Origin: a virus
Lineage: Duplodnaviria; Heunggongvirae; Uroviricota; Caudoviricetes
Virus record (IMG/VR): IMGVR_UViG_2859810971_000005
Direction: 5' to 3' (one strand)
DNA length: 16,792 nt
Each line of letters starts with the position of its first letter. Position 1 is the first letter of the stretch. Under the pieces are notes generated by a model, which did no database searches, was not told the DNA's origin, and was given only the letters and a program-made list of their open reading frames with translations. Positions 1,462-16,792 of this stretch are shown here, piece after piece. A program made the position numbers and the translations under genes.

Positions 1462-1738
1462 ATATGTCCTTTTACCACTACATCAAGTCATTGATTCGAT
1501 TAAACAATTTTCATTGAAAAAGTGCCAAAAATCGCAAATTGACTACACCATTAACTACACCGTTCGGTGCACTGTATGAAACAACGTGGAACAAATAGAC
1601 ACAAGAAATATACAGGCGGGTAATCTTTCCAGGGGGAAGCGCACCAATTCATGAGGGGCGTTAATGTCGATATGGGGATCCCCATAACGGGGCTACCGGA
1701 TTTTTTTTCCGGTTAACCTTTAATCAGGCTGGTGGGTT

Positions 1739-1855
1739 TTACATACCCTTGATCACCGTAATGATGATCCAGATGTGCACCTTTTCCACCAATGGCGGAA
1801 AAGCTCCAACCGTAACGATGATCGCTATGGTTGCCTCGATGGTCTGCGTGGTCAT
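1739..1855 (-). CDS. possible 38-aa hydrophobic micro-protein (speculative)
   Basis: ATG at complement 1853-1855 to TAA at 1739-1741; product MTTQTIEATIAIIVTVGAFPPLVEKVHIWIIITVIKGM is one predicted TM helix. No convincing Shine-Dalgarno sequence. Confidence 0.15.
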   Translation of the reverse strand: MTTQTIEATIAIIVTVGAFPPLVEKVHIWIIITVIKGM

Positions 1856-2257
1856 TATGACCGTTCAGCCAGTGACCTTAATCAGAATTTTTCGCTAAAA
1901 AATGACGTTGGCCACGTCATCCGGAAAGCACAAAATCACGTCGATTTTTAATGAACGGTTAAACCGTCTTTTTGTCACGGTGTGTCACTGGTTGTCACTC
2001 TCCGTCACGATTGAGGTGGTGGTCATTCTGCCCGACCGCGCATTTTTGCGCTATCGGGAATATCAAACAGTTACCTCGCCGACTTCCTCAAATTGAGGTT
2101 TCCGAAAATATCAGAGCGGGTTAGCGATTAAGCTGACGAGTAATTAAACTGCGAAAATTTCGTAGTTTCTGAATATATTCCGGCCTGCTGGTTAACAGTC
2201 CTCAGATGTGAGGGATGTAGCCAGCGCAATTTTGCGCTTTGCTTTAATCTCAGTGAG

Positions 2258-2539
2258 TTACCGCCGTAACCGCTCCGGCTTCTTCCAGTGGTACGTGATT
2301 TTCTCCTTCTCCCGATACAGTTCAACGCGGCGATTGTAGGCCAGCATTTCCAGAACGCGGATCCGTATGTCGCGCATATCCGCATCATTAAGCTGGATAC
2401 CATCACGGCGCATCACCTCAGCAACAACACGCGCATAATTTTCGGCTGTCACGCTGTCCGGCTGCGTGGTCTGTTCGTCAGCCTGCTGGCTGATTCCAGA
2501 GACGCGGCGGATTAATCGCAGTATTTCGGCTTCTGTCAT
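2258..2539 (-). CDS. hypothetical protein (93 aa), last gene of the packaging operon
   Basis: ATG at 2537-2539 preceded by GAGGT about 7 nt upstream, 13 nt after the terL stop; same strand as the operon. No recognisable motif. Confidence 0.55.
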   Translation of the reverse strand: MTEAEILRLIRRVSGISQQADEQTTQPDSVTAENYARVVAEVMRRDGIQLNDADMRDIRIRVLEMLAYNRRVELYREKEKITYHWKKPERLRR

Positions 2540-2552
2540 GCTGCTGACCTCA

Positions 2553-3269
2553 TTACACCCCGCTAAATTCTTCCAGTTTCTGGCGGTGGCTGTCGCTTAT
2601 ATCAAAAGCAAAATCCTCATGCTCTGCCTGGAATGTACCAAACGCCATCAGCGCCGCTACGCTCGGGTCTATCTTGTTCGGTGATTTTTTCTTGTTCGGC
2701 TTGATATTGGCGTTCGCGTCACTCTGCATCACGACGTTACTCATCGACCAAGACAACACCGGATCGCCACGATGCACAATCACCCTGCGGTTAACAAAAA
2801 CTTCGAACGATTTCGCCGCCGGACTGAATCTGAGGTAGGTTTGCGGGAACGGCTCCACCTCAAAACCAGCCCCCTGTAATTGCGTCCTGAGATGCGTGGC
2901 GTTCCACGTATCAAAGCCCACCAGCCTGATATTAAATTTCTCCGCATCCTGCATGATGTCATCTCTGATCCGGTCGTAATCAATGCAGTCACCTGGCGTT
3001 GTGCGTATCCAGCCCGCTTTAGCCCACTGGCGATAGACAGCGCGGTTTTTATTGGCGGGGTTCTGTAGCTGGAACTCCGGCAGATAATGACGGGAAATCA
3101 GCATAATGGTTTTACCGACCGGAAAGGCATAGCATACGCTGGAAATATCGCTGGTTGATGATAAGTCCAGCCCCGCGTAACACTCCTGACCGTGTAAATC
3201 TTCCTCCGTGAACGTTCCGGCACACTCAGCCCATGCACCATTACCCATCCACGGGTAGTCCCCTGACAC
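2553..3269 (-). CDS. terminase large subunit, C-terminal nuclease-domain fragment (frameshifted terL)
   Basis: 238-aa ORF with the RNaseH-like nuclease signature (YAGLDLSSTSDISSVCYAF). It lies in a different frame from the upstream ATPase fragment and overlaps it by 172 nt; a TAA sits immediately upstream in this frame. Confidence 0.85.
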   Translation of the reverse strand: MSGDYPWMGNGAWAECAGTFTEEDLHGQECYAGLDLSSTSDISSVCYAFPVGKTIMLISRHYLPEFQLQNPANKNRAVYRQWAKAGWIRTTPGDCIDYDRIRDDIMQDAEKFNIRLVGFDTWNATHLRTQLQGAGFEVEPFPQTYLRFSPAAKSFEVFVNRRVIVHRGDPVLSWSMSNVVMQSDANANIKPNKKKSPNKIDPSVAALMAFGTFQAEHEDFAFDISDSHRQKLEEFSGV

Positions 3270-15188: not shown

Positions 15189-15345
15189 TATTGCCCCCTT
15201 TCGTTTCTTAAAGAGTTATTTCGTGTTCTATTGCGTTGGGATGTGTCTGATTGTGTCAGGATGATTCAGAGTTGGCAAATGTTGAGGCCGTATGGTTTAC
15301 AGAAAGAGGAATAATCAGGATAAAATCCTTTAAATTCATGTTAAT

Positions 15346-15385
15346 ACAAAGGCATAAAATATTGTTTCATGCCTTTTTTCTCGCT
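15346..15385 (+). terminator. terminator-like hairpin on the plus strand in the int-alpA intergenic region
   Basis: AAAGGCAT - 13-nt loop - ATGCCTTT followed by TTTTCTCGC; the transcript it would end is not identified. Confidence 0.35.
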
Positions 15386-15470
15386 ATTTAAAGAGTGATT
15401 CGCTAGTGTATAAAAAATCAGTAACACATTAAAAATCAGCTACTTATAAATCTGTACACTTTTTCACCTC

Positions 15471-15520
15471 TTGTTCGTAGTTGTTCCGCATTGTTGCTCA
15501 TTGTTGCACGTTGTATCTGT
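15471..15520 (+). promoter_or_regulatory. five direct repeats of TTGTT(C/G/A) at exact 10-bp phasing
   Basis: TTGTTCgtag / TTGTTCcgca / TTGTTGctca / TTGTTGcacg / TTGTATctgt, followed by the 16-bp palindrome CAGTATGCGCATACTG at 15530-15545. Candidate binding array for AlpA, integrase arm sites or another regulator. Confidence 0.5.
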
Positions 15521-15562
15521 TCGCATATCCAGTATGCGCATACTGAAAAAACACGAAAAAAA

Positions 15563-16792
15563 TTATTTTCTTCTGGCTACTGGTAGCGTGGTTACGTTTT
15601 CATGTGTTCCCGCCAGTATCCCTAACCGCTCCGTCCACATATCCAGCGCATTGCGTTTAGCATCCAGATAACGGGAATGATTATAAACTCGCTGCATTCC
15701 TGGCATCTGGTGGCCTGTAAGCTGCTCCACGACGTGAGGATCCACGCCTAAATCGTTCAGCATCGTTGTAAAGGTGCGCCGGATGTCATGTAGTGACCAG
15801 TGAGGGTGATTTAGCCTCCTGTGCGCTAATCTGCCGTACTGCGACACGCTTGTTTCCTGTTTCACTTCCCCCAGCAATAAGCCCGTGTGCCTGTTCTGCT
15901 CCACCAGCTGCGTGACGAACGGCAGTATTGCTTCCGGTATGGGCCGGAATATTGCCACCTTCGTTTTGCTGTGTTCTTTCGGCACGGTCCAGAGCATTTC
16001 GGTAAAATCCCACTCGCTGATCTCCGATAACCTCAGTTCTACCGTCCGGCATCCGAACACAATCAGGAGGCGGATTAACGCGATGTAGTAGGGGGAGAAT
16101 ATTTTTTTGTCCAGTGCCTGCAATAATTCGCCCAGTTCTTTGGTGCTTAAGACACGCTCGCTTATATCCGGTTTTTTCCCAACGTCCGCCACACTCATAT
16201 CATCAAGAACGTTGCTGATTGCATAGCGCCGCCTCCGGCAGAACTTAAGCGCCTGTTTGCACGTCTGTAGCAAGAATCCGGCAGTAACAGGCGTTCGCTT
16301 TGCCACCTGGTCAAAACAGGCCAGCCAGTGCCGTAGCTCGCATTTATCCAGCGGCATAGCACCAATGTGCTGTATTACGTGATTATTAAGGCGCTTTTTC
16401 AGGGCGGCATAATCCACGCGGTTTTCCTTTGCGTACGACTCAAGCCAGTAGGTGAGCGCATCGCCAACCGTTACCGGCTTTAACGCTTCCTGTACGGTGT
16501 AATTAAGCTCATGACGTGGATTTTTCCCCTCTGCCAGCCATGCGCGACACTGGGCGGCTTTTTCCCTGGCTGATTTCAGGCTCAGATCAGGATAATTTCC
16601 CAGCTTAATGCGTTCCGGTGGTGCCCCCCTTCCCGTTCCGGCCCTGTAAGTGAAATACCAGGTTAAAAGGCCACTGGTTGAATGCCTGACGCTCAGGTTT
16701 CCACCGTCATTAAGAAAGGCTGTTTTTTGGGCGGGTGTGCCGTTGATTTTCCTCAGCTGTGTATCGCTCAGTTTGTTAAGTGCTCTGCTCAT
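15563..16792 (-). CDS. int: tyrosine site-specific integrase, P4-type
   Basis: 409 aa; C-terminal catalytic region with the conserved R...H-x-x-R...Y residues (…HDIRRTFTTMLNDLGVDPHVVEQLTGH…YNHSRYLD…). N-terminal arm-binding-like domain. Its start codon is the last 3 nt of the window, so the attachment site lies beyond the window. Confidence 0.95.
   Translation of the reverse strand: MSRALNKLSDTQLRKINGTPAQKTAFLNDGGNLSVRHSTSGLLTWYFTYRAGTGRGAPPERIKLGNYPDLSLKSAREKAAQCRAWLAEGKNPRHELNYTVQEALKPVTVGDALTYWLESYAKENRVDYAALKKRLNNHVIQHIGAMPLDKCELRHWLACFDQVAKRTPVTAGFLLQTCKQALKFCRRRRYAISNVLDDMSVADVGKKPDISERVLSTKELGELLQALDKKIFSPYYIALIRLLIVFGCRTVELRLSEISEWDFTEMLWTVPKEHSKTKVAIFRPIPEAILPFVTQLVEQNRHTGLLLGEVKQETSVSQYGRLAHRRLNHPHWSLHDIRRTFTTMLNDLGVDPHVVEQLTGHQMPGMQRVYNHSRYLDAKRNALDMWTERLGILAGTHENVTTLPVARRK

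Follow-up and report, generated by a model that had tools for sequence, protein, structure and literature searches.

The 16,792-nucleotide stretch of DNA analysed here (the window; virus record IMGVR_UViG_2859810971_000005) carries, next to phoQ, a real tail-less, capsid-encoding satellite of the already described family of phage-inducible chromosomal islands of the capsid-forming kind (cf-PICIs). Judged by its genes, the island is an allelic variant of EcCIEDL933, the prototype cf-PICI from E. coli O157:H7 EDL933 (Alqurainy et al., 10.1101/2022.09.08.507074; He et al., 10.1101/2025.02.11.637232), and occupies the identical attachment site. The lesions in its capsid gene, its small terminase gene and its replication operon indicate that this copy is almost certainly an immobile relic. 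Taken as a whole, the reading that an EcCIEDL933-lineage cf-PICI at the phoQ-roxA site has decayed into an immobile relic is highly probable. The original prediction, made from the letters of the window, had proposed a tail-less, capsid-encoding satellite of the cf-PICI type by phoQ. The HMM-detected families, the identity to EcCIEDL933 and the att bounds described below confirm this proposal.

The window matches a segment of the 4.53-Mb chromosome CP026810.1 with 100% identity; the 99.8-99.9% identity of this chromosome to named S. flexneri genomes makes it almost certainly that of Shigella flexneri. In E. coli K-12, the site is empty and phoQ and roxA are spaced by 75 bp. The comparison of this empty site with both island junctions defines att as the 10-bp direct repeat AAATATGTCC. 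The boundaries are as follows.

1..1461, plus strand: phoQ, 486 aa, intact; chromosomal flank outside the island, annotated as phoQ in the homologous loci.
1460-1469: left att copy AAATATGTCC, overlapping the TAA stop codon of phoQ, located by comparing the empty K-12 site with the right junction.
172-181 bp past the window end: right att copy AAATATGTCC, in the source genome CP026810.1.

The left att copy agrees with the predicted start of the element at position 1462. The window ends about 180 bp before the right att copy, and the island spans about 15.5 kb including an IS1 element, or about 14.7 kb without it. In the source genome, the integrase gene is followed directly by roxA, pepT and potA, all of which are core genes. 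The flank past 16792 thus contains the att copy and then roxA, and the tail or lysis genes that the original prediction had named as evidence against itself were not found there; core genes flank both ends. Nearly all of the sequence from 1462 to the end consists of tightly packed minus-strand genes. The predicted co-orientation accordingly holds for nearly all of the genes, with a small Arc-like open reading frame (ORF) on the opposite strand as the exception. A 21-bp repeat, ACTACACCATTAACTACACCG, was also considered as the att core, and was ruled out by comparison with the empty K-12 site; it sits inside both arms.

We assigned the ORFs to families by profile hidden Markov model (HMM) searches with Pfam, NCBIfam and PHROGs, which included ten small ORFs from the unassigned stretches. 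All eight packaging families (capsid, protease and portal, adaptor and connector, and HNH, TerS and TerL) were detected, in the order published for proteobacterial cf-PICIs, and three of these genes are damaged. The head and packaging module is composed of the following genes, with identities to the EcCIEDL933-type proteins unless stated otherwise.

7637..8794, minus strand: major capsid pseudogene, HK97-type (PF05065), split into 275-aa and 109-aa ORFs.
7025..7597, minus strand: HK97-family prohead protease, 190 aa, intact (TIGR01543, E=4e-53), 97.9% identical.
5812..7023, minus strand: portal, 403 aa, intact (Pfam PF04860, E=1e-89), 98.3% identical.
5477..5815, minus strand: head completion/head closure protein, the gp16-like adaptor (Pfam PF05521), 96.4% identical.
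5184..5480, minus strand: gp6-like head-tail connector (Pfam PF05135), 96.9% identical.
4744..5184, minus strand: HNH endonuclease, packaging cofactor (Pfam PF01844), 99.3% identical.
4578..4760, minus strand: orf60 (phrog_3173), small and conserved, located between hnh and terS.
4197..4568, minus strand: terS, P27 family (Pfam PF05119), a 123-aa ORF with a new N-terminus.
2553..4213, minus strand: terL, large terminase (TerL_ATPase and TerL_nuclease, Pfam), split into 371-aa and 238-aa ORFs.
2258..2539, minus strand: orf93 (phrog_1561), a conserved hypothetical gene downstream of terL, 93.5-100% identical to its homologues in E. coli strains 122 and RM6927.

The lifecycle genes lie toward the other end of the island.

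15563..16792, minus strand: tyrosine integrase, 409 aa, intact (Arm-DNA-bind_3 and Phage_integrase, Pfam).
15000..15188, minus strand: alpA, 62 aa, intact (Pfam PF05930, E=5e-18).
14317..14496, plus strand: small Arc/YlcI-like ORF of 59 codons (phrog_228, Arc-like repressor, E=2e-6).
10501..12249, minus strand: P4/D5-type primase-helicase, 582 aa, intact (D5_N, DUF5906, Pox_D5; TIGR01613, primase, P4 family).
10260..10487, directly downstream of the primase gene: iteron-type origin, with 10 GGTAGAYAG-like repeats in both orientations and an AT-rich core.

These searches validated the family calls of the original prediction for the head module, including the capsid, portal and protease calls that it had singled out for checking, and likewise its P4-type integrase, AlpA and P4/D5 primase-helicase. 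The proposed iteron origin is also well founded: the window contains 14 GGTAGAYAG-like sites, 10 of which are clustered in the 288-bp gap downstream of the primase gene, as two opposed sets flanking the AT-rich core, while shuffling the sequence left a mean of 3.3 sites, and 14 was not attained in any of 200 shuffles. The proposed ribbon-helix-helix regulator fared less well. The small Arc/YlcI-like ORF exists, but the case for it is weak: its YlcI_YnfO_N score lies under the curated cut-off. It shares 51% amino-acid identity with the strain 122 island of E. coli, in a stretch over which the DNA sequences do not align.

No ORF in the window matched a tail, tape-measure, baseplate, holin or lysin family, and none matched Sid, Psu or Delta/Ogr, in Pfam, NCBIfam or PHROGs. 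Between the two att copies, every part of the gene map is accounted for without tail, tape-measure or lysis modules. The predicted lack of tail, baseplate, holin and endolysin genes therefore holds both inside the island and past the window, as does that of the P4-type genes, and the att-bounded element is not a complete tailed prophage, just as the prediction had stated. The published search for cf-PICIs selected elements of 10-18 kb with integrase, regulation, replication and an exclusive packaging module, and with no lysis or tail genes (He et al., 10.1101/2025.02.11.637232). The window island has the corresponding size and att bounds, the integrase-alpA-primase set and the packaging families in order, and it lacks tail and lysis genes. 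It encodes homologues of 11 of the 11 cfPICI core components of SatelliteFinder, and none of the forbidden ones. Its packaging genes, however, are not all intact, which makes it a degenerate member of the family.

How close is the island to the prototype? The EDL933 island directly adjoins roxA, and its integrase (WP_000085257.1) and capsid (WP_001137345.1) accessions recur in E. coli strain 122, in which a full island fills the phoQ-roxA gap. WP_000085257.1 is 100% identical to the window integrase, as also seen by tblastn against the strain 122 island, and WP_001137345.1 is 100% identical to PDB 9GYI, the EcCIEDL933 capsid (He et al., 10.1101/2025.02.11.637232). The capsid frame of the window differs from 9GYI_B at 6 of 385 positions, the stop codon among them, and matches it at the other 379. 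For AlpA the identity is 98.4%, and for the packaging proteins, capsid to TerL, it is 96-99%. The two islands share the roxA-phoQ attachment site, the order of the packaging operon and the size class of 15.4-15.5 kb, and both are devoid of tail and lysis genes. In contrast, the primase of EcCIEDL933 is a 710-aa DUF927 protein, while that of the window is the 582-aa D5_N/DUF5906 protein, and the two are 53% identical over the N-terminal 225 residues only. Moreover, the window island retains ssb as a 25-residue remnant fused to unrelated sequence, lacks perC and carries other accessory ORFs. Of the two, it alone has the capsid stop, a 90-bp terS deletion, IS1 and, in the CP026810.1 assembly, a terL frameshift. 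Exchanges of such modules between PICIs and cf-PICIs are known from the literature.

Related islands occupy the same site in E. coli RM6927 and in the assemblies GCA_013468035.1 and GCA_013468155.1. These islands share with the window the site, the primase type (90.9% identity in RM6927) and the packaging module, and they have neither the capsid stop nor IS1. The 90-bp deletion is absent from RM6927 and GCA_013468035.1, and the GCA_013468155.1 sequence ends before the terS region. RM6927 has full ssb and perC genes and different small ORFs between alpA and the primase gene. The DNA of the two GCA islands is 99.6-99.7% identical to that of the window across most of the island as aligned, and their capsid gene is intact, with 385 aa; by their sequences, these islands look like the functional form that the window copy derives from. 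A further island, in E. coli O103:H2 (NZ_AP038983.1), has about 93% DNA identity and the same gene set, again without tail or lysis genes. It lies inside tqsA, which it splits, and its integrase gene has about 92% DNA identity to that of the window. Closely related integrases are thus found at two different att sites.

The classical PICIs EcCICFT073 and EcCIED1a share the int-alpA-primase left half and the helper-induced alpA control, and the int, alpA and rep of EcCIEDL933 were reported to be identical to those of these two islands (Alqurainy et al., 10.1101/2022.09.08.507074). Unlike the window island, they lack the capsid, portal, connector and terL genes and redirect helper packaging through Rpp. 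In SatelliteFinder, the portal, adaptor and connector are forbidden components for a PICI.

We next describe the four lesions that set this copy apart from its working relatives, the first of which lies in the capsid gene. At 7967-7969, codon 276 reads TGA in place of TGG (GCG GTC TGA GTG, versus GCG GTC TGG GTG in the intact alleles). The product ends at residue 275 of 385, with the loss of the C-terminal 110 residues. The region cut off includes K290, D295, E319 and R345, each of which was needed for EcCIEDL933 transfer in mutagenesis experiments (He et al., 10.1101/2025.02.11.637232). In exactly this form, the 275-residue protein is indexed for 3556 blocks of assemblies. The near-identical carriers of the stop that could be identified are S. 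flexneri, among them NCTC 9728 (CP026799.1) and Shi06HN006 (CP004057). Because the stop is common to many independent assemblies, it is not a sequencing error.

The second lesion is a 90-bp deletion at terS, which removes the start codon, the ribosome-binding site and about 70 bp upstream of the start. It lies between two CCCCGCC repeats and leaves a 7-bp microhomology junction at 4527-4533. The undeleted sequence is found in RM6927, the O103:H2 island and GCA_013468035.1, the last being the 99.7%-identical relative whose capsid gene is intact. The possibility that the deletion is specific to one strain was rejected by the alignment of sister assemblies: it is present in every stop-carrying assembly aligned, and is thus clade-wide. 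In HNH-dependent cos systems, such as those of HK97-type phages, the cos site lies between hnh and terS. By analogy with these systems, the deletion probably also damages packaging in cis. The 123-aa terS ORF of the window owes its new start to the shortening of a run of six G to five at 4553-4559, which is unique to the window.

The third lesion, which the first reading of the window had missed, is an insertion in the replication operon.

12768..13535, minus strand: IS1 (insA/insB), 768 bp, bracketed by a target duplication of 9 bp, CGAAACAAT (12759-12767 and 13536-13544).
12246..12545, minus strand: DUF4222 protein (Pfam search).

IS1 breaks a 77-aa ORF after codon 8, immediately upstream of the DUF4222 and primase genes, and this arrangement makes polarity on the replication operon plausible. 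DDE_Tnp_IS1 was called in the source contig, and the sister assemblies do not have the insertion.

Finally, compared with an intact 553-aa terL, the terL of the window is frameshifted through the loss of 1 bp from a C/G run at about 3252-3256. This frameshift was found in CP026810.1 only. When looked up as exact proteins, the TerS of 123 aa and the TerL fragment of 371 aa matched the source contig only, and we read the single-base differences in terS and terL as specific to this assembly and not a feature of the clade. As compared to the sister S. flexneri assemblies, CP026810.1 has five single-base deletions, all in G/C homopolymer runs. Those outside the window lie at about 19070, 19520 and 19540 of the source-genome locus (L015), in phoP and the phoP-purB spacer, and through one of them phoP, just outside the window, is broken up into ORFs of 146 aa and 77 aa. 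This pattern suggests that the G/C-run deletions, including the terL frameshift and the change at 4553-4559, are long-read consensus errors.

Two statements of the original prediction do not survive these findings. The head and packaging module is not "complete", since the capsid gene is interrupted by TGA, the terS start is deleted and terL is split. Nor is the statement that such an element "can make and fill its own heads" supported for this copy, given the truncated capsid, the lost terS start, the terL frameshifted in this assembly and the IS1 in the operon.

The substitution patterns in the packaging genes are consistent with the loss of their function. Among seven stop-carrying islands, the packaging genes contain 18 single-nucleotide polymorphisms (SNPs), 13 nonsynonymous and 5 synonymous. 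One of the 13 is a further nonsense change, which affects the portal gene in one metagenome contig; it lies in the same stop-bearing island, on scaffold ERZ28563302 at the window-equivalent position 5862, and fits a packaging module that is still decaying. In contrast, the packaging genes of the window and the EcCIEDL933-type island differ by 25 nonsynonymous and 63 synonymous codons (13:5 versus 25:63, Fisher p=0.0008). This contrast indicates relaxed selection, and it fits a packaging module that purifying selection maintained up to the origin of the stop and that has drifted since.

How would such an island have moved? In EcCIEDL933 and its relatives, helper-dependent induction requires alpA (Alqurainy et al., 10.1101/2022.09.08.507074; He et al., 10.1101/2025.02.11.637232). 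According to the same studies, the island encodes T=4 capsids of about 47.5 nm, the cos-type packaging needs the island's own HNH, TerS and TerL, and the tail-less heads are released and then joined to helper tails. We infer, by analogy, that the ancestor of the window copy followed this scheme. A helper phage would have triggered alpA expression, and the integrase would then have excised the island, which would have been replicated from the iteron origin by its own primase-helicase. The heads would have been filled with unit-length island DNA with cleavage at cos, and helper-phage tails would have completed the tail-less heads.

In the window copy, this pathway would be blocked at the capsid, at terS and by the IS1 upstream of the primase gene, and also at terL unless the frameshift is an assembly error. 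Since the integrase, alpA, the primase and the origin are intact, excision and replication may survive. We infer that excision and perhaps replication still occur, while no capsids or packaged DNA would be made and the island would be inherited only vertically. Helper-driven transfer is predicted to fail at capsid formation.

The remaining features lie in the arms, in the terminal region and between the two modules.

1542..1561, plus strand: tandem pair of ACTACACC with a 12-bp period; the motif occurs again in the int-proximal arm past the window end.
1470..2257: non-coding, variable terminal region, with GTCAC repeats at 1972-2008 and one repeat module of about 186 bp at 2038-2238.
9077..9416, minus strand: accessory cassette with orf74/100 (phrog_1957), flanked by two identical terminator hairpins.
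9461..9622, minus strand: 53-aa ORF; residues 1-25 are 88% identical to the N-terminus of SSB, and the remainder is unrelated (tblastn against the strain 122 and RM6927 islands).
9632..10212, minus strand: two accessory genes, orf101 (phrog_27268) and orf92 (phrog_1231).
13987..14187, minus strand: Icd-like protein of the P4 Icd family (NF033153, E=6e-18).

The second tandem ACTACACC pair lies 27-46 bp past the window end (1957-1976 of the source-genome locus) in the same orientation, and both pairs are trailed by about 40 bp of looser similarity. From their arrangement, the pairs are candidate arm-type sites for the Arm-DNA-bind_3 domain of the integrase.

The ORFs of the terminal region between att and orf93 matched no family, and the region had no Rfam match. 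In the window as a whole, no tRNA or tmRNA was detected, nor, at the Rfam gathering thresholds, any Rfam family or C4-like RNA. The modules of about 186 bp start with the hairpin GCGCAATTTTGCGC, and their ends resemble the 3' end of orf93. Their number varies from none in RM6927 and one in the window to at least two in the EDL933-type island (about 4200-4536 of the strain 122 locus). The idea that the module is strain-specific was rejected, since the alignment of sister assemblies shows it to be common to the clade. The GTCAC motifs, with four to five copies at a 10-bp spacing corresponding to one helical turn, look like a protein-binding array. The array is kept in RM6927 and absent from the EDL933-type island, and therefore is not essential for packaging.

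The terminators around orf74/100 consist of AGCCGGAGCAATCCGGCT and a T-run (region 9058-9438). The 340-bp segment at 9077-9416 is missing in GCA_013468035.1 and S. flexneri Shi06HN006; it thus behaves like a moron-type cassette that may be gained and lost via recombination between the hairpins. The alignments identify the 53-aa ORF as the apparent remnant of the ssb gene present in the related islands, and the ssb-perC segment of those islands is replaced in the window island. A PADLOC search of ten accessory or unassigned ORFs, including orf101 and orf92, found zero defence families. At 14196-14950, two long ORFs overlap: one of 248 aa on the minus strand, annotated as "hypothetical protein" in EDL933, and one of 109 aa on the plus strand. 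Neither matches any family. The 33 variable sites at 14500-14950 are distributed over the codon positions as 6/14/13 and 6/13/14 in the two frames, which favours neither. A plus-strand ORF at 13849-14199, antisense to icd, matches phrog_4106.

Several points weigh against the reading of the island as an immobile relic. The loss of function is deduced from sequence, and the packaging effect of the 90-bp deletion depends on a cos site placed by analogy. The terL frameshift and the change in the terS G-run, being unique to CP026810.1, may not be real mutations. The contrast in selection comes from only 18 SNPs. In addition, UGA is the leakiest stop codon, and its misreading by tRNA-Trp would restore the original residue; a GTG codon lies directly 3' of the capsid TGA. 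Trace amounts of full-length or two-piece capsid protein could thus arise by UGA read-through or GTG re-initiation. A first alternative, that of the original prediction, is a fully functional cf-PICI that makes and fills its own heads and needs only helper tails. All 11 core cf-PICI families in canonical order would fit this view, as would the integrase, alpA, primase and origin, together with the protease, portal, adaptor, connector and HNH genes, all intact and 96-100% identical to the working prototype, and the possibly artefactual terL frameshift. The capsid TGA in many independent assemblies, the clade-wide loss of the terS start and its upstream sequence, the IS1 in the replication operon and the relaxed constraint indicated by the 13:5 ratio argue against it, and we regard a functional island as very unlikely, with only a slight chance of a functional outcome. 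More room, though still little, is left for the view that the relic is kept for the benefit of the host, with int-alpA-icd-primase-ori, the capsid fragment or the accessory ORFs hampering HK97-like phages or other cf-PICIs. Thousands of assemblies still carry the island with the stop and have not deleted it, its regulatory and replication genes are still intact, and the variable regions flanking the packaging operon are expected to carry genes for immune systems (He et al., 10.1101/2025.02.11.637232). Against this, no accessory ORF belongs to a known PADLOC defence family, the packaging-gene SNPs look neutral, recent clonal descent together with lost mobility accounts for the retention equally well, and EcCIEDL933 has negligible effects on helper fitness according to the SatelliteFinder authors; we consider host use unlikely. 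Just as unlikely is its more specific form, in which the S. flexneri half-satellite (int, alpA, icd, primase and ori), still competent for excision and replication, replicates upon phage infection and, by way of a truncated capsid fragment or accessory ORFs, poisons the assembly of HK97-like helpers or incoming cf-PICIs. No positive evidence for such co-option was found, and the PADLOC search gave no match. If true, the half-satellite would be a domesticated satellite serving as a defence or exclusion element.

The other two alternatives concern the origin and the type of the element. An ordinary tailed HK97-like prophage, stripped of its tail and lysis modules by deletion, would also leave capsid, protease, portal, connector, HNH and terminase genes of phage-derived families, and Shigella genomes are rich in IS-mediated deletions, while the window copy itself is visibly decaying. 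However, the same gene set of about 15 kb, with exact att bounds and never with tail or lysis genes, occurs in E. coli at phoQ-roxA and, in O103:H2 strains, at tqsA, and the second-site islands argue against such an origin. The island ends at short att repeats beside intact core genes, its regulation and replication are of the PICI type (int, alpA and P4-type primase) and not lambdoid, and only 6 of its 385 capsid positions differ from the capsid of a satellite proven by experiment. We judge this origin to be extremely improbable. Still less credence is due to a P4-like satellite that remodels helper capsids. P4 shares with the island the same broad integrase type, the AlpA-like regulator, Icd and the P4-family primase. 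However, P4 resizes the capsid protein of its helper P2 by Sid, carries the cos site of this helper and also possesses Psu and Delta; no match to Sid, Psu or Delta/Ogr was found in the window. In place of the helper capsid and terminase that P4 uses, the island encodes its own head and terminase, with a capsid, portal and terminase that P4 lacks.

An immobile relic of the EcCIEDL933 lineage therefore remains the preferred reading, and its family, lineage and insertion site were all previously known. The cf-PICIs were described in 2022-2023, the prototype lies at the phoQ-roxA site, and its capsid structure has been solved (PDB 9GYI). The comparison with the published cf-PICIs suggested by the original prediction thus places the island in the family, and shows that the lineage is not new. 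A literature search for phoQ together with PICI found nothing relevant. The finding has little weight as a discovery, and its useful results are corrective. The presence of gene families alone over-calls function, and the integrity of the reading frames needs to be checked against close relatives; furthermore, the probable homopolymer errors in the source assembly affect the calls of terL in the window and phoP just outside it. For the biology of the host, the island represents a satellite that was apparently inactivated once, by the capsid stop, and then passed down vertically in a pathogen lineage that has been sequenced heavily; it is a minor illustration of how mobile elements decay in the course of Shigella genome reduction.

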